The translations under genes and the position numbers were made by a program. This document shows, in pieces, positions 3,176 through 64,000 of a DNA stretch of 64,000 nucleotides; the first letter of the stretch is position 1, and every line of letters starts with the position of its first letter. This DNA comes from Candidatus Aminicenantes bacterium (GTDB lineage Bacteria; Acidobacteriota; Aminicenantia; Aminicenantales; Saccharicenantaceae): the NCBI GenBank assembly GCA_963796835.1, contig CAWCND010000009.1:38859-102858 (forward strand), in the 5' to 3' direction. The notes below the pieces were generated by a model. That model was not told the DNA's origin and did not search any database. It saw only the letters and a program-made list of their open reading frames with translations.

Positions 3176-4295
3176 TCACAGATAACGGGCCTTTTTCATT
3201 TTCCGGAGCGTCTCGACGACCTCCCTCACGCGCTGGTCCTGGCTCGAAGAACAGACGAGGAGGGCGTCCCCGGCCTCGACCACGATGAGGTTGCGGACGC
3301 CGACGAGAGCCGTCAGCCGGCCGGGATTGTAAACCAGGCACCGGCGCGAATCGACGGCGAGGCATTCGCCGCGGGCGGCGTTGCCCTCCGGGTCCTTTTT
3401 CCAGATCTCGAAGAGCGAGGACCAGGCGCCGACGTCGGACCAGCCGAAGTCCCCCTCGCAGACGACGACGCCACGGGCCCTCTCCATGAGGGCGTAATCG
3501 ATGGACGTCCGGGGGATCTTCTCGAACACGGCCCGGAGCCCTCTTTTGTCCTTCCTCCTCGAGGGCCTCGATCAGCCGCTTCCAGAGCGTGAAAAGCTCC
3601 GGGGCGGAGCGCTCCAGCTCGGCGGCGAAGACGCCCGCCCGCCAGACGAATATCCCCGAATTCCAGGCGCAGTCGCCCGCCGCAAGGAACCGGCGGGCCA
3701 GCCCGAGACTCGGCTTTTCCCTGAAGGCCCGGACGGGGTAGAAGACTTCCCGGCCGAGCTTTTGGGGCCGGCCCTTCGAGAATTGGATGTAGCCGTACCC
3801 CGTGGCGGGATAGCGCGGACGGATGCCGAAAGTCACGAACGAGGAATTTTCGGCGGCGAAGTCGGCGGCCGCCTTGAGCTTGATGAGGAACTCCTTCGGC
3901 TGCCGGATGAGGTGGTCGGCGGCCAGGACGGCGACGACCGCCTCGGGATTGTCGAGCCAGATCCGGGCCGTCGCCAGTATGAGAGACGGCGCCGTGTTTC
4001 TGGCCAGCGGCTCGACCAGGAAATTCGCCCCGGTCATTTTCGGGAAGAGTTTCCGGAGGGTCCGGGTCTGGCCGGCGTCGGCGACCATCAGCGTCCGCCC
4101 GGCCGGGATGAGGGGACGGATGCGCTCGACCGTTTCCTCGATCATGGACTTCCGGCCTACGATCGGGAGGAATTGTTTCGGCTCCTTGGCCCGGCCGAGC
4201 GGCCAGAACCTGGTCCCGCGGCCCCCGGCCAGGATGAGCGCCCGGAGGTCGACCCCGGCTTTCGCCGGGCCTTTTCGCGCCGCCGCTCTCATCAT
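3176..4295 (-). CDS. manC: Mannose-1-phosphate guanylyltransferase (GDP-mannose pyrophosphorylase); one frameshift near 3535
   Basis: The N-terminal frame (3111..4295) has LILAGGRGTRFWPL and typical ManC blocks. The C-terminal frame (3176..3529) has FEKIPRTSIDYALME and the cupin-like tail. The junction is a +1 indel in an AAAA/GGG run. Confidence 0.8.
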
Positions 4296-11457: not shown

Positions 11458-12840
11458 CTATTTTCCTACGCAGAAACGATCAAAGATCTCGGCCATGACG
11501 TCGTCCGACCTGATCTCTCCCGTCAGCCTCCCGAACAGGGAGATCGCTCTCCTGAGCTCCTCGACGTATGTCTCCTCCGTATGCCCGGCCTCGAGCAGCC
11601 GGCCGGCTTCGCGGAGCGCCTCCCTGATGTCGAGGAGGATGTCCTTCTGCCTCGCATGGAGGATCACCTCCTCCCCGGCATCGACCGGAGGGACGAACGC
11701 CCGGCGTATCTCCGCCCTCAGCTTATCCAGATTCGTCCCCTTGAGGGCGGAGACTTCAATGAGAAGGACACTTCCCGACTGGGCCCGGAGCCTCTGCTTG
11801 TCGATCCGGCAGGGAAGGTCGGATTTGTTGAGGACCAGGAGGGATTTTTTCTCTCTGAATCTCATGATCAGCCGATCGTCTTCATCGCTTTCCGGCCTGG
11901 ACCTATCGAGGACGATGAGGAGGCCGTCGGCCTGCCGGGCAATCTTTTGTCCCATGAGGATCCCCTTTTTCTCGACCGGATGGGCGGGTTTTCCCAGGCC
12001 GGCCATGTCCACGAGGTGGAAGACGAGGTCGTCGATGACAATCTCCTCCCTGAGGTAATCCCTGGTCGTCCCCGGATAAGGGGTCACGATAGCCCTGTCT
12101 TCTTCGAGAAGAGCGTTGAACAGAGTCGACTTTCCGACGTTCGTCCGCCCGGTGATTGCCAGCGTTAGCCCTTCGTTTAGGGCCTTTCCCGCCTGGAAGC
12201 TTGCAATGAGCCTCTCCAGTCCGGCCATCAGGGCCTCCAAAACCTTGCTCTGCCTGGCCGGTGTCGTCCTCAGACCCTCTTCTGGGAATTCGATCCCGGC
12301 TTCCACCTGGGCGACCAGGCGGACGAGGTCCGACCTGAAGCCACGGATCTTCCTTGAAAGACCCCCCGAAAGTTGCCGGGACGAGATCCGCGCCTGGGTC
12401 AGGGACGCCGCCCGGATGAGATCGTTGACGGCTTCTGCCTGGACGATATCCAAGCGGCCGTTGACATAGGCCCTGAGGGTGAATTCCCCCTGGCGGGCGG
12501 GCCTCGCTCCGGCCTGTACGCCCAGCCGGACGGCCTCCTCGAGGACGACAGGGCTCCCATGGCAGCTCAGTTCGACCACGTCCTCCCGGGTGTAGGAATG
12601 AGGGGCCTTGTAATAGGTCATAAAGGCCTCGTCGAGGACCTCTTTTCTCGAGCGGTCGATCAAATTACCCAAGACGGGACGCCTGACGGGAAAATCGCGG
12701 CCATGGCCGCGGCCGCTGCCCCCGCCAGGCTTGAAGACCCTTCCGGCCACCGCCAGGGCCTTTTTTCCGCTGATCCGGACGATCCCAAGACCACCGATCC
12801 CGGGAGGGGTCGATATGGCAATGATCGTGTCTTCGAGCAT
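11458..12840 (-). CDS. mnmE: tRNA modification GTPase MnmE (TrmE)
   Basis: Contains the G-domain motifs [10 protein letters not shown] and DMAGL, and the C-terminal CxGK motif (FCVGK). Confidence 0.9.
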
Positions 12841-13259
12841 GTTCAGGGGCTTTCCGGCTCCCCATTGTAGAAGACGCGACGGCATTAGTAAATAGACCAT
12901 CCATCGGTCTGGTCAGGGATGAACGAAACGACCACAATGCGGGCTTATCCTTCAAGGAGCACCGATTTAGGATTAGGGCTGAGTGGATGGCTGAAGCGAT
13001 AGAAGTTAAATGCGCAGGGGGTGTTCCCGGAGCCGCCCAGAAGAAGAGTTCAGGACTCGATCCGGATATTTTCCAGAAGTGCGGCTCCGCCACACTTCTG
13101 CCGGTCGCTCCTCAGAATCCGCCCCGCTAAGAAGCGGGACTGCCCGCTTCTGGACAATTACGGCAAGAGGCGGGACGGCTCCCTGCCCCAGGGAATCCCC
13201 CGAGCTCAACTCTATTAAAAGGCTGAAGCCGTCCTCGTCGCCCCATAAGGAAGGGGAGT

Positions 13260-13901
13260 CTATTTCGAGGCGCGGAAGACCTTGACTTTCTTCAGGAACC
13301 CTTCGCCGATGCTCTCACTGGTGATGCCGGGGACCTGGTTGACGGCGATGTGGACGATCCGGCGCTCATAAGGGTTCATGAAATCCAGGACCTCGTCACG
13401 GCCGGACGCGGAAACCTGCTCCGCGACCTTCTGGGCGAACTCCTGGAGCTTTTTCTCCTTCCGCCGCCTGTAGAATTCGCAATCCACCTGGACCTTCACG
13501 GGCGAAATCTTGTTGAAGACGTGTTGGAAGGCGAGCAGGAGCGCTCCGTCGTTGCGGAGGAGGAGGTTCTTGTCGGGGCCGTCAAAGATGATGAAGACGA
13601 TATCCGGGCGCTTCTTGATCTGATACGTCAGCTCCAGGGGAAAATGGGGCATGACCTTTTCCAGGAACAGGTCGACCGCGTTCTCTTCCTCTTCCTTTAT
13701 CGCCCAGGCCCGGATCACGATCTCCTTGCCCTTGATGCCGAAGAGCTTGGTCTTCTCCGTGACGATCTCGTAGTTGAATTTCCCCCGGGGGAGCTTCAGC
13801 CGGTCCTCGGCCAGGCTGATGGCCTCCTCGAGGTTCCGGCCCTTATATTCCTGTCCCTCGACGGCCGGTTGTCCGTTCTCAGTTTTTTCTTGGTTTTCCA
13901 T
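13260..13901 (-). CDS. jag: Jag/KhpB (EloR-like) RNA-binding protein with KH and R3H domains
   Basis: The gene sits downstream of yidC. The R3H-like C-terminus (ERRIVHIAV) is present. Confidence 0.8.
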   Translation of the reverse strand: MENQEKTENGQPAVEGQEYKGRNLEEAISLAEDRLKLPRGKFNYEIVTEKTKLFGIKGKEIVIRAWAIKEEEENAVDLFLEKVMPHFPLELTYQIKKRPDIVFIIFDGPDKNLLLRNDGALLLAFQHVFNKISPVKVQVDCEFYRRRKEKKLQEFAQKVAEQVSASGRDEVLDFMNPYERRIVHIAVNQVPGITSESIGEGFLKKVKVFRASK

Positions 13902-39671: not shown

Positions 39672-39744
39672 CTGGGGCGGGAGGATTCGAACCTCCGAAT
39701 GACGGAGCCAAAGTCCGTTGCCTTACCGCTTGGCTACGCCCCAG
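39672..39744 (-). tRNA. tRNA-Gln (anticodon UUG)
   Basis: The minus-strand sequence TGGGGCGTAGCCAAGCGGTAAGGCAACGGACTTTGGCTCCGTCATTCGGAGGTTCGAATCCTCCCGCCCCAG folds as a cloverleaf and closely resembles E. coli tRNA-Gln. Anticodon loop CUUUGGC. Coordinates are +/-1. Confidence 0.85.
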
Positions 39745-40810
39745 CGCCGACTTGCGCCCAATAGCCCTCACGCGGCAGGGTTTCCACGAGGCGGGCCTCC
39801 GACTTGCCACGGAGCAGGTCGAGAGCCTTCCGGGCCTGGTTCCTGTCGGTGAAGAGCCCGAAAACCGCCGAGCCCGAGCCGGTCACCAAGGACAAGGCCG
39901 CGCCCTGGCCCCGGAAAAACCTCTTGAACACTTCAAGTTCGGGATATCGCCGGAAAATGACGAGTTCCAGGTCGTTTTCCAAAAGACCGAAATCTCCGGT
40001 ATCCAGAAAACGCATAATTTTACTGTCTTTGGCGGGTGAAGTCAACTCCTCGAGTCCCCGGCCTGAATGCCGGGGCTTGTTTGGGGTTACTAAGCCGGGC
40101 AGGATATAATTGTCTTCAGATTTCTCTATCGCCCGGCTAGTACTCGGGGAGCAGCAAGGATTATGTAATATATTTACTGCTCCCCGTAGTAACCCTGAGC
40201 CTCGCTTCTTGTCCCCGACTTGAAAGGCGGGGCTTAGCGTCGGCGAACGGGTCAAGGATGCCCCGAGGCCCGCATAGATCTCGGCGGTGTGGATCGGGTA
40301 CGGCGGGAAGGCGAGAACACAGGGGAGGGGCGGGAGATCGGGGAGCCGTTTCAGGACTTCGCCCCGGGACTCCCCGAGGCAGAGCCCGCCCTGGAGGAAA
40401 TAAGGGACATCGGACCCGAGGAGGAGCGCCAGCTCGGCCAGGGTTTCTGCCCCGAGCCCGAGGGACCACAGCTTGTTCAGGGCGAGAAGCGTGACCGCGG
40501 CGTTCGCGCTCCCGCCGCCGAGTCCCTTTCCGGGCGGGACGGTTTTGGCCACCCGGATGCGCACGCCGGCCGGGCTCCCGGTCCGCTCCCGGAGCAGACG
40601 GGCCGCCCGGAAAACGAGGTTCGTCGGATCCCAGGCCACCGAAGGCTCGTCGCCCTCGAGACGGATCGATCCGTCCGCGGCGGGCTCCAACTCGATCGTG
40701 TCGGCGAGAGCGACCGACTGGAAAAGGGTCCTGATGTCGTGGTAACCGTCGGGCCTCTTCCGGACGATCTCCAGGCCGAGGTTGATCTTGGCGAAGGACC
40801 TAACCTTCAT
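39734..40810 (-). CDS. ispE: 4-diphosphocytidyl-2-C-methyl-D-erythritol kinase IspE carrying an in-frame ~70 aa repeat-element insertion
   Basis: The GHMP kinase N-terminal domain (PPGKGLGGGSANAA) and C-terminal domain share one frame. A ~210 bp insert (40041..40255) encodes no stop codon. Confidence 0.85.
   Translation of the reverse strand: MKVRSFAKINLGLEIVRKRPDGYHDIRTLFQSVALADTIELEPAADGSIRLEGDEPSVAWDPTNLVFRAARLLRERTGSPAGVRIRVAKTVPPGKGLGGGSANAAVTLLALNKLWSLGLGAETLAELALLLGSDVPYFLQGGLCLGESRGEVLKRLPDLPPLPCVLAFPPYPIHTAEIYAGLGASLTRSPTLSPAFQVGDKKRGSGLLRGAVNILHNPCCSPSTSRAIEKSEDNYILPGLVTPNKPRHSGRGLEELTSPAKDSKIMRFLDTGDFGLLENDLELVIFRRYPELEVFKRFFRGQGAALSLVTGSGSAVFGLFTDRNQARKALDLLRGKSEARLVETLPREGYWAQVGAGA
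40041..40255. mobile_element. MITE-like hairpin-rich repeat element (copy A), in-frame within ispE; flanked by GTCAA on both sides
   Basis: Near-identical termini to copy B at 42091..42398. Four predicted stem-loops. Internal 8-9 bp inverted repeats GGTTACTA/TAGTAACC bracket a ~95 bp core. Confidence 0.7.
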
Positions 40811-42049: not shown

Positions 42050-42090
42050 CTCAACCTTCCGTCCTCCTTTATATCAAAAACGAGGAAAAA

Positions 42091-42398
42091 GTCAAACCCT
42101 CGAGTCCCCGGCATGAATGCAGGGGCTTGTTCGGGGTTACTACGGGGAGCAGTAAGTATATTACATAATCCTTGCTGCTCCCCGAGTACTAGCCGGGCGA
42201 TAGAGAAATCTGAAGACAATTATATCCTGCCCGGCTTAGTAACCCTGAGCCTCGCTTCTTATCCCCGCCCTGAAGCTCCACGGACTTACCCCGACTTTTG
42301 CGGTCTTTGGAGCGCCTGTCCCCGGAGCGGGGGTTCGCTATTCCTCTGTCCCGCGAAGGGGGTTGAAAGGCGGGGCTTAGCGTCGGCGAACGGGTCAA
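42091..42398. mobile_element. MITE-like repeat element copy B (intergenic), with the central ~95 bp segment inverted relative to copy A and a ~95 bp internal partial duplication in the right arm
   Basis: Left arm (gtcaaaccctcgagtccccggcatgaatgcaggggcttgttcggggttacta) and right arm (gtaaccctgagcctcgcttctt...ttgaaaggcggggcttagcgtcggcgaacgggtcaa) match copy A. The core is the reverse complement of copy A's core. Confidence 0.7.
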
Positions 42399-43924: not shown

Positions 43925-44048
43925 GCCCCGCGCGTCCTGCCCCGGCTCCGGCGATAGCTTCCGCTCCCATTGAGGTTGAGCTCGCGGGATTCCCTTTATC
44001 GCTTCAGCCATTTCCGAGGGTTCGACGGGGCGGAAAGATGGTTTTTTC

Positions 44049-51270: not shown

Positions 51271-51808
51271 CCCTCATTATACATAAAAGAGGACCCGTCC
51301 CGCTTCGTTGCTCTGTCACACTTCCGGAAAATATCTGGATCAAGAGGGACTGTCCCTGAAAGCGGGAAAGCCCCCTTTACCGGTGACGCGGATGCGGGGA
51401 GCGTGAGGCGGAGCGATGATGGATGGAGACGCACACGGAGAGGACGCCTCCGGCGGGACGAGAGCCAAAGGCCGAAGGGGAAGGGCTGGAACGTCATGTG
51501 CGGCTTAGCGCAAGCCGCACTCTGGAGTGAAGGCCATCCCCGAGGCCTTCGGCTGCTCGCTGGGGCAGGACCCCCGACCTTGACATACGAGGGATTGAGG
51601 CGAGCGCAGGCCTTGGGGACGTCCGCCGCCGTCCTGCTCCGGGCAGCCGGCCAGTGCGCCCCCCTCCGGGCCCAAAGCGGTGGCGCCGGGGTCATCCGAA
51701 AGACCCCGTTTGGAGAGGGACCCGGCGGGATTTCCGACGGGGGAACCGGGACAGGTTCCCGGGGCCGGGGGATAAGGGTGACCCGGGTGCCACCCCAATT
51801 GAGTGTGC

Positions 51809-56443: not shown

Positions 56444-57926
56444 CTATAATCCCCACGAACGGATCACGGCCTGGACCCCCTCCGCCAGCACGCCGGCGGC
56501 GGGCTGGATCCAGGATTTGATGGTCACCGAGAAGAAGATGCCGATCCCGACGCAAAGGGAGGCCAGCAAGACGGTCGAGGCGGTCATCCAGAAGGGCGCC
56601 TCCTTCACGGCGGCCCATCTCTCGTTGAGCTTTCCGAAGAAGGCCTTGCGCTGGATGAGGAGGTAATACCAGAGGGTCAGGACCGAGGCCAGTACGGCGA
56701 TCAAGGCGAAGACGGGGTGCCCCGCCTGGATGAGGGCCATGATGATGAGGAGCTTGGACCAGAAGCCGTTGAGGGGCGGGACGCCGGCGATCGACAGGGA
56801 GCCGATGAGGTTCGTGGCCGCGGTGAAAGGCATCCGCTTGGCCAGGCCGCCCATCTCGTCGAGGTTGCGGGTGCCGGTGGCCTGCTGGATGGAGCCGGAG
56901 GTCAAGAACAGGAGCCCCTTGGCCAGGGCGTGGTTGAACAGGTGGAAGAGCCCGCCGGCGATGCCGAGCGGCGTCCCGAGGCCGATCCCCAGGACGATGT
57001 AGCCGACCTGGCTGATCGAGGAATAGGCCAGCATCCGCTTGATGTCTTTCTGGCCCAGGGCCAGGAAGGCGGCGACGACCAGGGATACGGTGCCGAGGGT
57101 CATCAGGACACTGGACAGGGCCGGCGTCAGGCCGAAGACGTTGAGGAAGACCCGGGTCAGGGCGTAGACGCCCGAGACCTTGATCAGCAGGCCCGACAGG
57201 ACGGCCGAGATCGGGGCCGGGGCCGAGGGGTGGGCGTCCGGCAGCCAGGCGTGGAAGGGGACGAGGGCCGCCTTCAGCCCGAAGCCCATGATGAAGAGGG
57301 CCGCGCAGATGCCGACGACCGGGCCGGCGTTGAGGTCTTGGAGGGCCCTGGCCACGGCCGGCGAAGCTCAGGCTGCCGGTCATGCCGAAGATGACGGCGA
57401 TGCTGACCAGGATGAAGGCCGAGGCCACGACGGACAGCAGGAGGTACTTGAAGGCCGCCTCGAGCTCGTCCTGCCCGAGGCCGAAGGCCACCAGGGCGTA
57501 GGAGGCGACGGCGGCCACCTCGAGAAAGACGTAGATGTTGAAAAGGTCCGTGGCCAGGACGAGGCCGTTCATCCCGGCGATCATGATCAGGAGCAGGGCG
57601 TAATAATTCGCCTTGGCCCCGTAGTGCTCCATGTAGTCGATCGAGAACAGGCTGACGCAAAGCCCGACCAGGGAGATGGCCATGAGCATGAGCAGGCTGA
57701 ACCCGTCGAGGGCCAGGCGGAGGTTGACGGTCTCCCCGAGCCAGGTCAGCTTCTGGAGGGCGGGTCCGTTCCCGATGAGCGGCCGGCCGACGGCCACGGC
57801 GTAGACGAGCAAGAAGAGAAGGGCCGCGTTGGCCAGCAGGTCCGGCACGACCCTCCGGGAGACCTTGCCGACGAGCGGCAGGACTCCCGCCACGATGAGC
57901 GGCAGGGCAACGAAGAGAATGATCAA
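56444..57926 (-). CDS. NuoM/N-like antiporter subunit (Proton_antipo_M family), one frameshift
   Basis: ORF 56444..57355 (C-terminal) plus the N-terminal part of ORF 56280..57926. Confidence 0.8.
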
Positions 57927-57979: not shown

Positions 57980-59854
57980 CTATTTCGTGAGCATGGAGAT
58001 GACCCCGGCCACGATGATGAGGCCGGCCAGGCACCAGGCCAGGTAATTCGCGTAGTGCCCGTTGTGGGCCTTCTTCAGGATCCCGGTGAACTTCCCGCCC
58101 ACGGCCGTGACGGCCTTCTCGAAGACGAAGTCGATGGGCCGGTCGACCGCCTTGAACAGGACCATGGACAGCCCCCGGAGGAACTTCACGCCCTGCTCGT
58201 AGAGGTCGAACACCCGCGCTTCGGCCAGATCGTAGAGCTTATGGAGGACCGGGCAGGTTGTGGACCGGCTCGGAGGCCAGGTAGGGCTTGCGCCCCGACT
58301 TCCGGAAGCCGTAGGCGTGGAGGAGGAAGGCTAGGACCAGGCAGGCCAGGGAGATGAGGGCGATGGGGTTGACGAGGGCCAGGGCGTGGGCCGTGAAGTC
58401 GACAGGCTCGCCCGCCTCGACGTGGCCCGCCAGGATCGGCTGGATGAACAGGGTCAGGGGCAGCTTGTTGAAGACGCCGAAGATGATGCAGAGCAGGGCC
58501 AGGATCGAGGATCGGGATAACGACGGGCGCCTGGCTTTCCTTGACCGGCCGGGACCTCCTTCGTCCGTTCGCCGAAGAAGACCGAGTGGCCGGCCTTGAG
58601 GAACGAGGCGAAGGTGAAGATCGCCCCGACCCAGGCGGCGATGGCGAAGACGATGTAGCCGGTCTCGATCGCGCCGTGGAAGACCATCTCCTTGGAGACG
58701 AACCCGTTGAGCGGCCAGACGCCCGAGATGGCCAGGGCGCAGACGGAGAAGCCGAACGCGGTCAAGGGCATCTCCTTGCCAGAGCCGCCGAGCTTCTTGA
58801 GCTCGGTCGTCCCGGTCCGGTGCTCGACCGAGCCGGCGCTCAGGAAGAGCCCGCACTTGTACATGGCGTGGTTGATCATGTGGAAGAGGCCGCCGGCGAT
58901 GCCGATGGGGATGCCCGTGCCGATGCCCAGGACCATGTAGCCGACCTGGCTGATGGCGTGGAAGGACAGCAGCTTCTTGAAGTCCTTCTGGATGAGGGCC
59001 ATGAACACGGCCAGGACGATGGTCACCGCGCCGATGGTCATCATCAGGATCGACAGGCCGCTGCCCGGCTCGATCTTGAAGAAATCGAGGGTGATGCCGG
59101 GCCAGCAGGTAGATGCCCAGGAGCTTTTCGAAGGCGGCCGGCAGGAAGGCCATGAAGGTCACGGGCGCGTCGAGGGCGGCGTCGGGGATCCAGGTGTGGA
59201 AGGGCATGGCGCCGGCCTTGCCGATGGCGCCGATCATCATCAGGACGAAGGCCGCCGCGGCCAGGCCCGTCGGGCTCGACCGAGATCTCGGACATCGTCA
59301 GCGTGCCGGACAGCGACCAGAGGAGGCCGATGCCCAGGATCATGCAGAAATCGCAGAAGCCGCTGATCAGGAGGGCCTTGACCGCGGTCCGGCTCGACGT
59401 CGGCTTGCCGCCGATGGTGATCAGGCCGTACAGGGTCACGAGCAGCCCTTCCCAGAAGAAGAGGAGGGGCACGAAATTGTTGGCCAGGACCGCGCCGTTG
59501 GCGAAGGCGGCCGTCAGGAAAACGTAGGCGTAATATTCCCGGACCCGCGGGGCGTCCTTCATCTTGACCGTCGAATAGAGCGTGATCAGGACGAGGAACC
59601 CGCGACAGGGCGAGCAGGATGAAGCTCGAAAAGTGGAACAGGCGAAGCTCGAAATCGATCCCCATTCCGAGCCAGGGGACGCTCAGCTCGAGGTTCTTCA
59701 CCGAGAAGAAGACGAACGCGTAATAGAGGAGGGCTGCGGACCCGGCGACGGCCAGCAGTTCGCGGAGGAGCCTGACCCCCTTGGGGATGAGGAGAAGGAC
59801 GACGGCGAGGACCGCGGGCAGAAGGACCGGCAGAAGGAGCATTTTGGGCGTCAT
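57980..59854 (-). CDS. NuoL-like antiporter subunit including the C-terminal long helix and last TM (frameshifted)
   Basis: The N-terminal fragment runs in ORFs 59240..59866 and 59044..59562, the core in 58454..59044. The separate 77 aa ORF 57980..58213 matches the NuoL C-terminal helix and TM16. Confidence 0.7.
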
Positions 59855-61282
59855 CGGAGCCACCAACTCATCTGGGCCGTCGCAACGCTGACGAGTTTCA
59901 TGGGAAACGAGACGAGAAGGCCGGCCGCCAGGCTGAGGACGGCCAGGGTCGCGACGACAAAGACCATGGATTTCGTTTTTTCAGGGGCCGGATGCTTGGC
60001 CTCACCCAGGAAAACCAGGCTGAAGACCTTCAGCAGGTAGAACATCGTCAGGACGGCGGTGAACAGGGCCGTCCCGGCCAGCCAGACCTGGCCCGCTTGA
60101 AGGGTGCCCATGATCACCAGGAACTTGGAGAAGAACCCGCCGAAGGGCGGGATGCCGATGACGGAGAACGCGCAGAAAAGAAAAGCGACCGCGGTGACGG
60201 GCATGGTCCGGATGAGGCCGCCCATCTCCCGGATGTCCTTGGTGTGGGTCGCGTGGATGACGATCCCGGCGCAGAGGAAGAGGCCGGCCTTGGCCAGGCC
60301 GTGCATCAGGATGAAGAGCAGGGACCCGGAGATGCCGGCCGCGTTGGCCATGCTGAAGCCCGAGGAAGATGTAGCCGATCTGGCTGACCGTCGAGTAGGC
60401 CAGGATCCGTTTGAAGTCGTTCTCGACGGCGGCCGCGCCCGCGGCGACCAGGCTGGAGACGACCACGACGATGGGGATGATCTGCTGCCATTCGGCCGGG
60501 ATCCTGAAGCCGTAGAGGAAGAGCCGGGCGTAGGCGTAGACGCCGATCTTGACGAGGACGGCGGCGTGGAGGAGGGCCGTGACGGTCGTCGGCGCGACGC
60601 CGGCGTCTGGCAGCCACGTATGCAGGGGCACCGTGGCGGATTTCGAGAACAGGCCAAAGAGGATCAGCAGGACCGCGCTTCCGGGGATGAGGGTCCCCCG
60701 CATGGCGGTGATGTCGAAGGTTTTCGTGACGCCGTAGATCTGGATGAACCCCAGGAGCATGACCACGGCGCCGAAGAAAGTCACGAGGAAGGCCTTGTCC
60801 GCTTTGATGACGAAGTCCCGCTGGCGGTAGAACCCGATCAGGCGCCAGCAGCTGATGGCGATGATCTCCCAGAACAGGTACAGGAAGATGAGGTTGCCGG
60901 AGAAGACGAGCCCCATCATGGCGCCGATGAACAGGAGGACCATCAGGTAGTATTCGTTCTGGTGCTCCTCGTGGTGGATGTAGCCGATGGAATAGACGAC
61001 GATCAGGCAGCCGACGAACGATGAGACGCAGGCCATGAAGATCGACAGGGGGTCGAGGATGAGGATGACGTCGAGCCCGAGGACGAAGGGCTTGCGGACG
61101 ACCAGATCCCCACCGCCGAGGGCGAACGGGATCAAGGTCAGGGGCAAGACCGCCGTCGCGGCGCTCACCAGGATGGCCCACAGCGACCGGGCGGGCTTGG
61201 AGACGAGGGCCGCCAGCGGGACCGCGAATGAGCCGACGATGGGGACGAGAATCGTGAGGAGGGCGATGGTTTCGACGTTCAT
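59851..61282 (-). CDS. NuoN/M-like antiporter subunit (frameshifted)
   Basis: ORF 60002..61282 (N-terminal) and ORF 59851..60657 (C-terminal) both carry Proton_antipo_M blocks. Confidence 0.8.
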
Positions 61283-61465: not shown

Positions 61466-62591
61466 ATGGCCATCGAAGTCAAGGAAATCCGATCCCGGAA
61501 GGACCTCAAGACCTTCATTTACCTTCCCGAAAAGATCCACGCCGGGCACGCGAACTGGGTCCATCCCATCTACATGGACGACTGGAAATACTTCGACCCG
61601 AAAAAGAACAAGGCTTTCGGCTACTGCGACACAATCATGCTCCTGGCGTTCAAGGATGGCGCCTGCGTCGGCCGGTGCATGGGGATCATCAATCGCCCGA
61701 TACAACGAACACCGGAACGAAAAGACGGCCCGCTTCGGATACCTGGAAACGTACGAGGACCAGGAAGTCGTCCACGTCCTCCTGGCCAGGATCGAGGACT
61801 GGGCCAGGGCCAAGGGGATGACCCGGATCGTCGGCCCGTACGGCTTCTCGGACCAGGACCCCGAGGGGTTCCTCGTCGAGGGCTTCGACCACCGGGCGAC
61901 CATCGCCACCTACTACAATTTCCCCTGGATGCCCAAGCTCGTCGAGAACGAGGGCTACGTCAAGGACATCGATTATTTCGTTTACAAGATCGACATCCCT
62001 AAGGAGATGCCCGAGTTCTACAAGAAGATCTATGAGCGGGCCGAGAAGAAGGGGGACTTCGAGGTCCTGGAGTTCAAGTCGAAGAAGCAGATCAAGCCCT
62101 GGATCCGGCCGGTCCTGTCGTTGATGAACGAAACCTACATGCAGAACAATATCTACGGCTACGCGCCGCTCGATGAGAAAGAGATGGACGAGCTGGCCAA
62201 GCGCTATCTGCCCGTCCTCAACCCCCACTTCGTCAAGGCCATCACGAAGGATGGCGAGATCGTGGCCTTCATCATCGGCATGCCCGACATGAGCGGGGGG
62301 ATCCAGAAGGCCCGCGGCCGGCTCTTCCCGTTCGGTTTCATCTATATCCTGCGGGCGGCCAAGAAAACGAAACAGCTCGACCTCCTCCTCGGGGCGGTCA
62401 AGGACAAGTACCGGGGCCAGGGCCTGGACGTCGTGATGGGGGTCAAGATGATCCAGTCCGCCCTGGACGCGGGCTACGAGATCATGGACACCCACCACGA
62501 GATGGAGACCAACGTCAAGGTCCGGGGCGAGATGGAGCGGATGGGCGGAAAGATCTATAAGAAATTCCGCGTCCTCCAGAAGGCACTCTAG
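61466..62591 (+). CDS. Tandem GNAT-fold acyltransferase-like protein of unknown function (one frameshift near 61690)
   Basis: Two halves each with GNAT-like beta-alpha topology. The second half carries YRGQGLDVVMG (motif A-like). RBS AGGGAG. Confidence 0.45.
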
Positions 62592-62851
62592 GAAGCGAGG
62601 GCCCGTCCCTGAGAGCGGGCCAGCCCCTCTTGATCCAGATAGTTCCCAGAAGTGCGGCTCCGAGATGCTCCGCCACACTTCTGATGGTCGTTCCTCGGAA
62701 TCCGCTCCCTGCCGGTCCTGCCCGTGTGCGTTCCTGTCAGGCCTTCGGGGATGGCCTCCACTCCAGAGCGCGGTTCTTCACGCCTCCCCGAACCCTTCTT
62801 TCTCGGTGTCTGCGGAACTCGCTCAGCACTCCCTGACCCGCCCCGAATCTT

Positions 62852-62882
62852 AAAAAACGGGTTTCCTTTCTCCCGTTTTTTT
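62852..62882. terminator. Bidirectional rho-independent terminator (AAAAAACGGG...CCCGTTTTTTT)
   Basis: An A-run precedes and a T-run follows the hairpin, in the convergent intergenic region. Confidence 0.55.
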
Positions 62883-63348
62883 CCGAGCCTCCGCACTCTG
62901 TTGAATTTTGCTCAGACATCCTCGCCGCCCTCATGGGAGGGAATACCCAAGAGAGGTTTCCTCCCATGAGGATTCCCTCGAAAAACGGTTCGGAGAGGCT
63001 AAACCGCGCATGACGTTCCGGCCAATCCCCGAAAGCCCTCTTTAGCAGGGCACCGGCGGTCGGTCCCGTCGGTCGAACCCTCCAGAATTGTTGTCAAAAG
63101 GAATAGCCGGACGCAGGGGGGATGTCCCGGAGAAAACATTGAGCGCGACGCGGGCACGGTCCCTCGCCCCTTGGGCGAGGGGAGCGGAGCGATCACAGAG
63201 TGGGATTCCTCGCTGGGGAATCCCACGTTTTTCGGAGGGACTCTCCCCGAGTCCGCGACCTCGAGAAGGGAGGCCATTTCCCGAGGCCCTGAGATGGGAC
63301 ATGCCGGGACAGGACCCGTCCGGCCTTTTCGCCATCTGATAGGCCGGC

Positions 63349-64000
63349 CTATTTGGCGCCGGCCCAGTTGGGGCCCCAGCCGAGGCGGACCTTGAGGGGA
63401 ACCCTGAGGTCGCAGACGCTCTCCATGCGGTCCCTGACGATTTTTTCGACCTCGGCCGTTTCGGCGCTCGGGACCTCGAAAACAAGCTCGTCGTGGACCT
63501 GGAGGATCATCCGCGTCCGGAGCCTGCGGGCCCGCAGATCGTCCCAGATCCGGAGCATGGCGACCTTGATAAGGTCGGCCGCCGAACCCTGGATGGGCAT
63601 GTTGAGGGCGATACGGCGGCCTGCCTGCTGGGTCATCTTATCGGACTGGCGGAGCTCGGGGACCTGGCGCTGCCGGCCGAAGATCGTCTCCGAGTATCCC
63701 CGGTCCTTCGCTTCCGCGACGATCCGGTCGAGGTAGTTCCGGACGAGCGGGTGCTTGTCGAAATAACGGTCGATGAATCTCTGGGCCTCCACCGTCGAGG
63801 TCTGCGAGCTCCTTGGCCAGCGAGAAGGCGGAGGTCCCGTAGATGATGCTGAAATTGATGACCTTGGCCCGCCGTCTCATCTCTTCTGCCGGGAGCCCCG
63901 CCTCGCCGGCGAAGACGAGCCGGGCCGTCTCGTCATGGACGTCCCGGTCCGTCGAGGAACGTTTCGATCAGGGCCGGGTCCTCCGAGAGATGGGCCAGGA
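63349..64000 (-). CDS. polA: DNA polymerase I, C-terminal polymerase domain (gene continues beyond the window; frameshifted)
   Basis: RRRAKVINFSIIYG.SAF (motif B) and LQVHDELVFEV (motif C) are present. Confidence 0.85.

Follow-up and report, generated by a model that had tools for sequence, protein, structure and literature searches.

REP, REPIN and BIME elements are short, abundant hairpin repeats that lie between genes and occasionally within them (PMC3733652), and Rickettsia palindromic elements (RPEs) are units of ~100–150 bp found in frame within unrelated housekeeping genes, with no linked transposase known (PMC10969869). We compared with these systems two related stretches of a 64,000-nucleotide segment of contig CAWCND010000009.1 from a Candidatus Aminicenantes bacterium ("the window" below is this whole segment). 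With a probability of roughly 60%, each stretch is a copy of an interspersed ~91-nt module that is specific to Candidatus Aminicenantes (class Aminicenantia), resembles REP, BIME and RPE units, and is probably a non-autonomous mobile element. A sequence-only reading of the window had offered a small RNA gene, a REP-like element or a regulatory hairpin as explanations; "REP-like" came closest, as the module recurs in many copies at dispersed sites, bears a hairpin and is interspersed with palindromic repeats of other kinds. Its behavior is that of small mobile "selfish" DNA and fits neither an RNA gene nor a regulatory switch. Searches by taxon and by sequence returned no literature match for the sequence string and none on such repeats in Aminicenantes.

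Conserved unit and compensated hairpin

The conserved unit is ~91 nt long and consists of GATATTTCC, a 12-bp stem (CAGAAGTGCGGC/GCCGCACTTCTG) closing a 13-nt loop of conserved sequence, and GGTCGCTCCTCAGAATCCGCTCCCYGCCG. It has a sharp end, immediately after ...GCTCCCYGCCG, whereas the opposite, AT-rich end is ill-defined. High information content is confined to positions –62 to +29 relative to the anchor, and outside this interval there is no conservation at a fixed distance. The hairpin (12 + 13 + 12 nt) forms only the middle of the unit; these central 37 nt are its sole self-complementary part, the flanks are conserved and non-palindromic, and the element as a whole is not a palindrome.

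The hairpin is maintained through compensatory changes. In the alignment, 92% of stem cells were paired and 10 of the 12 pairs varied on both sides, and controls with a slid register were paired in only 27–58% of cells. A covariation check, suggested in the earlier reading, gave 99 compensatory cells in the stem, a number reached in none of 500 shuffles. Intermediates at stem positions 7 and 9, read in the plus orientation, were C.A in 24 haplotypes and U.G in 5, and the reverse strand forms the more stable fold. The loop and flanks are nearly invariant across many lineages, although conservation of the 3' flank is partly imposed by the pattern used in the metagenome scan. Each module contains CGCTCC three times, which reads GGAGCG on the reverse strand.

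Mutual information calculated for all pairs of core columns revealed no covariation outside the hairpin and no pseudoknot between loop and flanks. A general helix closing the core was rejected, as duplex energies failed to separate copies from controls in GC-rich DNA, and a small protein gene was rejected on the grounds that stem variants alter the peptide completely yet preserve base pairing. A resemblance of GAATCCGCTCCC / GCGGAUUCUG to tRNA or tmRNA, noticed by eye only, had no Rfam support, and its T-stem would not pair. When the window and 11 related loci were searched at Rfam gathering thresholds, nothing but tRNA passed, and at E values up to 10 the two copies gave only chance-level matches (12–16 bits versus thresholds of 32–80). 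The Rfam check run on both loci yielded no family that explains the element.

The two window copies and the jag–mnmE site

The core similarity claimed for the two stretches is real (local score 72 versus 14.7 ± 2.4; 0 of 500 dinucleotide shuffles reach 72), and both cores lie on the plus strand as described, at 13051–13122 (copy 1) and 62624–62715 (copy 2). The 5' start had been placed too far downstream, as the core begins ~25 nt further upstream with GATCCrGATAkTT, and the stem, given as 8 bp, has 12 pairs (CAGAAGTGCGGC/GCCACACTTCTG) with one C.A mismatch in each window copy. By contrast, the "loosely similar ~120 nt tail" proved to be at chance level (score 17 versus 16.1 ± 2.2; 176 of 500 shuffles reach 17). 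In copy 1, its "...ccccga" motif falls in the 3' end of a repeat shell around the core (13191–13212), and the "ttaaaaaacggg..." of copy 2 forms an ordinary terminator-like hairpin that is bidirectional (62852–62882). The two loci have only the ~91-nt core in common and are not parts of a longer duplicated segment.

Copy 1 is antisense to jag (13260–13901, minus strand) and mnmE (11458–12900, minus strand) and lies in the gap that separates them, as had been noted. Its core (covariance model R1, 77.5 bits, E = 1.8e-17) runs from the AT-rich 5' sequence GGACTCGATCCGGATATTTTC through the hairpin to GGTCGCTCCTCAGAATCCGC. In the hairpin, CAGAAGTGCGGC-TCC-GCCACACTTCTG (13074–13100, plus strand), 11 of the 12 pairs form, and the single C.A mismatch corresponds to a G.U wobble in the reverse strand. 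Of the 13 loop nucleotides in the family consensus, copy 1 is missing 10. The GAAGCGGG-actg-CCCGCTTC hairpin that had been assigned to the element does exist but belongs to a separate 57-nt module (13123–13179, plus strand). This nested module interrupts the 3' end of the core, and the final core bases, displaced to 13180–13190 (plus strand), read TCCCTGCCCCA (consensus TCCCTGCCG). The same 57-nt module recurs inside cores at non-orthologous loci (L020, L078, twice in L055, L132 and L036; L-numbers denote fetched loci) and occurs without a core in L082.

Copy 1 is also enclosed on both sides, all parts being on the plus strand. A "type A" shell provides a 5' end, TTAAATGCGCAGGGGGTGTTCCCGGAG (13006–13032), and a 3' end, GGGAATCCCCCGAGCTCAACTC (13191–13212), in which GGGGGTGTTCCC of the 5' end is the inverted partner of GGGAATCCCCC at 13191; the same ends surround the core in L003, L006 and L008. 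Shell and core are hosted in turn by an outer repeat with a 5' part, GGATGGCTGAAGCGATAGAAG (12985–13005), and a 3' part, TATTAAAAGGCTGAAGCCGTCC (13213–13234), where GGATGGCT pairs with AGCCGTCC at 13227–13234. An "empty" outer repeat at 43950–44011 (minus strand), with GGCTGAAGCGATAAAG joined directly to GGAATCCCGCGAGCTCAACCTC, corresponds to the copy 1 arrangement minus the 185-nt inner shell and core. Copy 1, with its loop deletion and nested 57-nt module, is an old, decaying composite. Its core shares 71% identity with the ortholog in L035/L060, compared with 92% for the flanks, and the stem is lost in that ortholog. One short-read contig that carries the same jag gene stops inside copy 1.

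Copy 2 is near the consensus (covariance model R1, 99.5 bits, E = 4.7e-23), has no insertion, and retains the 12-bp stem and a 13-nt loop, TCCGAGATGCTCC (consensus TCCGAGCCGCTCC), at 62647–62683 on the plus strand. It is placed in the 3' untranslated region of a plus-strand ORF (61656–62591), upstream of the terminator-like hairpin, within a 757-nt gap separating convergent genes. The third match to the covariance model in the window (51311–51356, minus strand) is truncated to the 5' part, GGGACAGTCCCTCTTGATCCAGATATTTTCCgGAAGTGtG, and lacks both the 3' stem arm and the 3' flank. A "type B" shell (63107–63262, plus strand) has ends that match core-carrying elements of related MAGs (L002, L007), with a different interior and no core.

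Among relatives, the length of the jag–mnmE gap varies between 105 and 573 nt. It is empty in L138 (105 nt), holds other modules and no core in L136 (238 nt) and a shell without core in L140 (360 nt), measures about 419 nt in the window, and contains a further nested module in L134 (573 nt). In L021, the module occupies this gap in the opposite orientation. Downstream of the insertion zone, mnmE retains a conserved promoter-like TTTACT-N17-TACAAT, and the module has no evident regulatory role at this site.

Copies between and within genes of relatives

An exact-pattern scan of genome contigs gave 11 matches, all in Aminicenantales/Aminicenantes MAGs and 6 of them in one MAG; a pattern leaving the hairpin free identified at least 120 metagenome loci, and the model matched 106 times in 663 kb of fetched loci. 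BLAST searches and scans of plasmids and phages returned no match to the consensus, and a scan of viral contigs returned one weak locus. The module is multi-copy and dispersed, lies between genes in either orientation, and is usually nested in or beside lineage-specific palindromic repeats. Several contigs have two or three divergent copies, and each divergent copy within one genome retains the hairpin. L027 contains a head-to-head pair, an arrangement that is rare, and L084 has three copies within 450 nt. Flanking genes were arranged as (–,–) in 23 cases, (+,+) in 22, (–,+) in 19 and (+,–) in 16, statistics that rest on gene calls from a crude home-made caller. The module is found together with four or more kinds of palindromic unit, some palindromes stand alone, some elements consist of a shell only, and interior modules are swapped between the same conserved arms. 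One neighboring palindrome, GTAGGTTTGACCCC, which has GTAG at its start, lies directly against the module's sharp end in 19 of 114 copies. Near-identical cores with a shared derived C.A mismatch at different loci of one MAG are a sign of recent copying, as is the recurrence of the nested 57-nt variant at loci that are not orthologous.

Presence or absence of the module varies at orthologous sites. Where orthologous copies exist, they are often conserved like flanking coding DNA and far above adjacent non-core DNA; in one example, identity was 98.9% in the core, 80.7% in the flanks and 56–86% in adjacent DNA. An excess of conservation over neighboring non-coding DNA is suggestive of either gene conversion between copies or some host benefit.

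Some copies lie in frame inside genes, in either orientation: in an HrpA-like helicase (L088), a ROK kinase (L062), GH38 proteins (L117, L131) and a Wzy_C protein (L057). Protein domains were detected on both sides of the intragenic inserts. In the helicase, the HA2_C domain lies on one side of the module and the OB-fold domain on the other; outside the group, HrpA homologues have no insert, and a relative with 84% identity has a solo palindrome at the exact site. The ROK domain is divided into two stretches by the module. Because the alignment of this protein to glucokinase 3vgk_A also falls in two blocks (residues 10–103 with chain residues 6–93 and 158–367 with 98–311), it has an insert of 54 aa. 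In the GH38 protein, the module immediately precedes the C-terminal domain. Five of the six reading frames of the module are free of stop codons, and all four reverse-oriented intragenic cases use the same frame, VRRGADSEERPSEVRRSGSEPHFWEIS. As judged from these translations, the intragenic module is predicted to be read through as a hydrophilic peptide of ~30 aa, like Rickettsia palindromic elements.

No recurrent gene or transposase beside the module was found among 546 neighboring proteins, and no autonomous insertion sequence with the same ends was found among these proteins or in plasmids and phages. The commonest neighbors, two large paralogous families assigned by eye from their sequences, one of 701-aa membrane proteins and one apparently sigma-factor-like, were taken to be chance neighbors. 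In L047, the module lies 50 nt downstream of a Y1_Tnp (RAYT-like) gene (37.8 bits; cut-off 23). This gene and its homologues (L145–L152) are flanked by different hairpins, GGGGACAYGTACC...GGTACRTGTCCCC, and the model finds no core at the other RAYT-like loci fetched. We rejected a RAYT as mobilizer as unsupported because the flanking hairpins of the homologues differ and no core is nearby; the single adjacency in L047 may be chance. The boundaries of the mobile unit were examined as well. An exact inverted repeat of at least 9 nt encloses 16% of copies versus 4.5% of controls, with arms that depend on lineage. An inverted copy of the module's own end accompanies 3 of 96 copies, a frequency equal to that of a control region. 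The idea that the module is half of a MITE with long terminal inverted repeats was rejected, as head-to-head pairs and inverted sharp ends are rare. No consistent direct repeat of the kind left by target-site duplication was found at the composite edges of one subfamily or in the filled/empty pair of the window, where edges are hard to define because of nesting.

Explanations weighed and comparison with known systems

If the favored reading is correct, the module would be current or recent non-autonomous mobile DNA that is copied or exchanged between loci. Recognition would be of the single-stranded hairpin formed by the complement of the window's plus strand, in which the stem intermediates are G.U or G.T wobbles. 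The acting enzyme would be supplied from another locus, most likely as an HUH/Y1-type single-strand transposase or a recombination system that targets REP-like hairpins, and new copies would seem to insert next to the 3' arm, or into the loop, of palindromes already in place.

Much of the same evidence could also be rationalized if the hairpin were retained by the host as single-stranded DNA or RNA, bound by a protein and kept by purifying selection at each locus. Candidate binders would be nucleoid, gyrase or polymerase-type proteins, as for REP and BIME, or an RNA-binding protein acting on the three GGAGCG motifs of the reverse strand. Orthologous cores at least as conserved as flanking coding DNA and far more so than adjacent non-coding DNA, divergent paralogous copies on one contig that retain the stem by compensation, the near-invariant loop and flanks, and the three CGCTCC motifs per module are all consistent with this proposal. 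We nevertheless consider it unlikely, given that some orthologous copies clearly decay (window copy 1, L035/L060), orthologous sites of relatives lack copies, and copies occur within coding sequences in both orientations and follow no rule of position or orientation relative to genes. Moreover, gene conversion among copies could imitate purifying selection, and the search pattern contributes to the apparent conservation of the 3' flank. A related and similarly doubtful proposal is that the module is more than selfish DNA, namely an ancient, vertically kept single-stranded recognition motif, made up of the hairpin with its 13-nt loop and the three reverse-strand GGAGCG motifs and bound by a dedicated, putative Aminicenantes protein. 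This protein could be a new HUH or other single-strand DNA enzyme with a substrate unlike classical REPs, or a host RNA- or DNA-binding protein that domesticated the repeat. Such a role, if true, would explain why orthologs and paralogs keep the structure by compensation over large divergence.

Models in which individual copies act as genes, switches or recombination sites fare less well. A multicopy family of independently transcribed small RNA genes, with hairpin and flanks as the functional RNA, would account for covariation that supports a folded single strand with a strand preference, for random orientation relative to neighbors, and for copy 2 in its gap between convergent genes. This model is improbable in view of the Rfam results even at E values up to 10, the truncated and nested copies, their variable presence at orthologous sites and the in-frame copies in helicase, kinase and glycosidase genes. 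In addition, no promoter or terminator was found at a fixed distance on either side of the module, and no T run follows the hairpin. Regulation in cis, with the module as an attenuator, riboswitch, processing site or 3'-UTR stabilizer and copy 1 regulating the jag–mnmE operon, fits the reverse strand of copy 1, which is co-oriented with both genes and lies between them. REP-type hairpins of other bacteria can also stabilize upstream mRNA (reviewed in PMC3733652). We regard this model as very improbable, however, as the four flanking-gene configurations are about equal in frequency, and orientation relative to flanking genes is random. At the jag–mnmE gap itself, presence is variable: the module is reversed in L021 and missing from L138 and L136, and the mnmE promoter-like site is conserved outside the insertion zone. 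Furthermore, the copy 1 hairpin has lost most of its loop, and its ortholog lacks the stem. Hardly more credible is a site for site-specific recombination of the integron attC, Xer/dif or inversion type. In its favor, attC sites act as single strands that fold into imperfect hairpins, the module has opposite orientations at jag–mnmE in different genomes, and interior modules are apparently exchanged between conserved arms. Against such a site, there are no same-oriented arrays with the spacing of small cassettes and no recurrent integrase or recombinase in the neighborhood, the consensus lacks R''/R' GTTRRRY boxes, and inverted repeats enclose only a minority of copies.

Aminicenantes are abundant, uncultured bacteria of sediment and peat. 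In their genomes, the family breaks assemblies, makes intergenic regions longer and gives housekeeping enzymes extra stretches of peptide; the repeat is therefore relevant to annotating Aminicenantes MAGs.

Returning to a non-autonomous mobile module, its likeness to REP, REPIN and BIME elements includes multiple copies that are mainly intergenic and occasionally intragenic, clustering and nesting with other repeats, a compensated hairpin with a strand-preferring fold, and persistence at orthologous sites. Aminicenantes relatives also carry a RAYT-like gene flanked by hairpin arrays. The module differs from REPs, which are palindromes of 20–40 nt, in being ~91 nt long and asymmetric, with a 13-nt conserved loop and single-stranded flanks of 20–30 nt. 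It has no GTAG/CGTC tag, its stem being flanked by ...TTTCC and CT/AT-GGTCGC, and the hairpins beside the RAYT-like genes examined are of the GGGGACAYGTACC family, not of the module. As in BIMEs, palindromic units and other motifs form a mosaic, a likeness of organization and not of homology to the E. coli elements; the BOX/RUP clusters of pneumococci are organized in a similar way. With RPEs and PARCELs, the module shares in-frame copies in unrelated genes that add a hydrophilic peptide in interdomain loops. It differs from RPEs in phylum and sequence, in being mostly intergenic and not palindromic throughout, and in usually being joined to palindromic units.

The ends of IS200/IS605-type elements and of their non-autonomous derivatives (PATEs) are similar in their asymmetry, with a subterminal hairpin ~30 nt from a sharp boundary and strand-specific folding, and the module resembles them in having no family-wide terminal inverted repeats and no target-site duplication that we could see, but it has one conserved "end" with no second hairpin end, no conserved target tetranucleotide at the boundary and no adjacent tnpA or tnpB. 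Integron attC sites differ in having R''/L''-L'/R' boxes with GTTRRRY, cassette arrays and an IntI integrase nearby. Like MITEs and ERIC, BOX, RUP and Correia elements, the module is small, non-coding, multi-copy, polymorphic in presence and nested, with shell ends around a variable interior, and composites of the window's lineage have inverted ends of roughly 12–20 bp. Unlike MITEs, it has no family-wide terminal inverted repeats, no target-site duplication that we could see and no parent insertion sequence that we could find. In a MITE family the ends are conserved and the interior varies, whereas here the interior is conserved and the inverted ends vary with lineage. For the study of mobile DNA, the interest lies in this asymmetric, structured interior module as the conserved part, in place of the ends. 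A clear RAYT/REP system that is seemingly not its mobilizer co-exists in the group, and the family is therefore a test case for mosaic assembly of the REP-like kind.

Two window copies of a dispersed module

The likeness between a stretch of the jag–mnmE gap (copy 1, ~13051–13122) and one near the 3′ end of polA (copy 2, 62624–62715), both delimited on the plus strand by direct reading and alignment, is real, as the sequence-only reading had held. Local alignment of the cores gave a score of 72, compared to 14.7 ± 2.4 in 500 dinucleotide-preserving shuffles. The loosely similar ~120-nt tail reported behind each core is at chance level, with a score of 17 versus 16.1 ± 2.2 that 176 of 500 such shuffles reached. 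The jag (13260–13901; Jag_N and R3H domains) and mnmE (11458–12900) genes are both on the minus strand and copy 1 lies between them on the opposite strand, confirming its antisense placement. Copy 2 occupies a 757-nt gap between the end of a plus-strand ORF (62591) and the polA 3′ end (63349). An Rfam search, proposed earlier as a check, revealed no known family at either locus; the sole match within the window was a tRNA (39672–39743). Compared to the consensus of an alignment of 114 distinct copies, copy 1 lacks 10 nt of the loop, and each window copy has one C.A stem mismatch. A covariance model of the module recovered both copies and a truncated 5′ fragment on the minus strand (51311–51356).

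Other features were observed in the window. The polA 3′ end (DNA_pol_A domain; 63349–64000, minus strand) is divided among three reading frames in the space of 650 nt, reflecting either a pseudogene or assembly indel errors; if the latter, trust in single-base details of the window is affected. The polA-proximal gap contains a bidirectional terminator-like hairpin between convergent genes (AAAAAACGGG...CCCGTTTTTTT; 62852–62882) and another followed by TTTTT (GTGGGATTCC...GGAATCCCAC; 63200–63226, plus strand) inside a core-less "type B" shell. Two ~186-nt plus-strand blocks adjoining the tRNA (40039–40224 and 42089–42274; 2050 nt apart, 83–86% identical in matched segments), each with internal complementary segments (GGGTTACTA.../...TAGTAACCC), are probably what had been called the first repeat family. 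Within a series of minus-strand ORFs, which includes one with Proton_antipo_M/N domains (60002–61282), there is a 300-nt direct repeat (56819–57118 and 58757–59056; 72% identity); it probably represents paralogous antiporter or NADH-dehydrogenase subunit genes rather than a repeat element.

Anatomy and pairing of the hairpin

When one genome per species was scanned with an exact pattern, the hairpin occurred at 11 sites, all in Candidatus Aminicenantales/Aminicenantes MAGs and six in a single MAG; in NCBI taxonomy this order belongs to class Aminicenantia within phylum Aminicenantota. A second pattern, anchored on GATA and the 3′ flank with the hairpin unconstrained, matched at least 120 metagenome loci. 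As drawn from the list of copies and the 114-copy alignment, the module comprises an AT-rich 5′ part, (A)GACTCGTTTCAGATATTTCC, a 12-bp stem, CAGAAGTGCGGC/GCCGCACTTCTG, a 13-nt loop, TCCGAGCCGCTCC, and an abruptly ending 3′ part, CTGGTCGCTCCTCAGAATCCGCTCCCYGCCG. High information content was confined to positions –62 to +29 around the anchor, with background levels on both sides. Among the fetched loci, the covariance model found further copies, such as two or three divergent ones on the same contig, one head-to-head pair, and elsewhere three copies within 450 nt.

Selection acts on the hairpin as a paired structure. Standard pairs fill 92% of stem cells in the alignment, changes on both sides occur at 10 of the 12 stem pairs, 99 cells are compensatory, and none of 500 shuffles reached any of these measures. 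Sliding the partner by 1–3 columns left pairing of only 27–58%, and whole-stem variants (CAGCACCGCTCC/GGAGCGGTGCTG, TAAAAGTGC/GCACTTTTA, and CAGAATAGCGGC/GCCGCTATTCTG) occur among the copies. Mutual information over all column pairs revealed no convincing pairing beyond the hairpin. U-A and C-G alternate most often at two positions, where 24 stem haplotypes show C.A as the intermediate and five show U.G; because these intermediates become wobble pairs on the complement of the window plus strand, the complement is probably the folding strand, and it also gave the more stable fold for both window copies. The strong conservation of loop and flanks, the most interesting point raised by the module, could reflect a putative protein partner.

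The jag–mnmE gap and possible roles in expression

Orthologous gaps, fetched from relatives via Jag homologues, differ in content. The gap is 105 nt without a repeat in L138 (Jag 85% identical), 238 nt with other modules in L136 (88%), 360 nt with a shell and no core in L140 (81%), ~419 nt with shell and core in the window (the query), and 573 nt with the window arrangement plus another nested module in L134 (96%). Locus L021 has the module in the same gap in reversed orientation. At copy 1, an outer repeat (12985–13005 and 13213–13234) encloses a type A shell (13006–13032 and 13191–13212), which encloses the core, and a nested 57-nt module (13123–13179) is inserted ahead of the core's last bases. 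An "empty" form of the outer repeat lies on the minus strand at 43950–44011 of the window and a type B shell without core at 63107–63262. In other lineages, the palindromes next to the core differ, AAGAAGGGGTCAAACCTAC...GTAGGTTTGACCCCTTCTT and GGGGACAYGTACC...GGTACRTGTCCCC being examples, and they also occur alone; only a minority of copies have an enclosing inverted repeat. In the L140 gap (~3380–3470), the module's last ~17 nt (CTCCGCTCCCTGCCGG) occur twice, as perfect inverted copies separated by a 30-nt spacer, the rest of the core being absent, and thus the sharp module end can exist and be duplicated alone. A 3736-nt Logan short-read contig with an identical jag gene (L001) ends within copy 1's nested module, as expected if the repeat breaks up short-read assemblies.

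The sequence-only reading had also entertained a small RNA gene or a regulatory hairpin, and neither is borne out. At fixed distances from the module, neither promoter-like nor terminator-like elements are conserved, and none lies beside the window copies. Flanking genes were called by codon usage, with a simple caller that had been trained on the loci's long ORFs; all four of their arrangements were equally common (23/22/19/16). The single promoter-like site near copy 1 (TTTACT-N17-TACAAT; 12892–12864, minus strand) directly precedes mnmE and is kept in every relative examined, regardless of which repeats the gap contains; this conservation suggests that mnmE is transcribed on its own as well as from the rnpA–yidC–jag operon. 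Copy 1 is nested and decaying, and nothing points to a role for it in jag–mnmE expression.

Copying, constraint, and known repeat families

The evidence is divided on whether the module is mobile or kept. In favour of copying, cores at different loci of one MAG are near-identical and have the derived C.A mismatch in common, the nested 57-nt variant recurs at non-orthologous loci, and L029 and L070 carry different stem variants at one orthologous site. For constraint, orthologous pairs with flanks 80–92% identical usually have cores 86–99% identical, compared to 45–86% for adjacent non-core DNA, and the stem is retained by each of the divergent copies in a contig. Copy 1 departs from this pattern, with a core 71% identical to its ortholog versus 92% for the flanks; the loop is missing in copy 1 and most of the stem in the ortholog. 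Such a mixture could result from gene conversion among copies, from a host function, or from slow replication in which recognisable hairpins are selected, as has been argued for REPINs.

The mobiliser would be a putative trans-acting enzyme that recognises the module's single-stranded hairpin. No gene recurs beside the module. With E. coli RayT as query, tblastn led to a Y1_Tnp gene in L047 (2712–3386, minus strand; PF01797, 37.8 bits) that has a module copy 50 nt downstream. GGGGACAYGTACC hairpin arrays flank both this gene and its homologues in Aminicenantes; at ~2001–2615 of L145, L147/L148, L150, and L151, IS200-like, RAYT-like Y1 genes have GGGGACAYGTACC-loop-GGTACRTGTCCCC hairpins, either single or in tandem, on both sides, as in a classical REPtron. 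The covariance model found no core in homologue loci L145–L152, and with other hairpins on the flanks of these genes, a mobiliser role for the RAYT-like gene is unsupported. These hairpins form an abundant repeat family of their own, absent from the window, and a second kind of intragenic repeat: they also occur within ORFs of L131, L057, and L047, including those for a GH38 protein and a Wzy_C protein, as repeated "ERGHVP / GGHVPxVHVP" peptide segments.

Several long ORFs read through the module without interruption, and Pfam identified real proteins with domains on both sides. The module lies between HA2_C and the OB fold of an HrpA-like helicase, splits the domain of a ROK kinase into two stretches, and is in frame in a GH38 mannosidase-like protein and a Wzy_C protein. 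Residues 10–103 and 158–367 of the ROK protein align with 6–93 and 98–311 of a solved glucokinase (3vgk_A), so that a loop holds an additional 54 residues. The module point is uninterrupted in HrpA homologues from outside the group, and an 84%-identical relative has a solo GTAG-type palindrome exactly where L088 has the core followed by the same right arm. Five of the module's six reading frames are stop-free, and all four reverse-oriented intragenic copies use one frame.

The module is a new, lineage-specific, structured interspersed repeat. The earlier label "REP-like element" holds for behavior and not for membership. By their defining tests the module falls outside each of the REP/BIME/RPE-type families: it has neither the GTAG tag of REPs nor family-wide TIRs, no consistent TSD was seen, and it does not flank a RAYT gene as in REP/RAYT pairing. 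It nonetheless works like such small mobile DNA, and is read in frame within genes as described for Rickettsia palindromic elements (PMC10969869) and intragenic REPs (PMC3733652).
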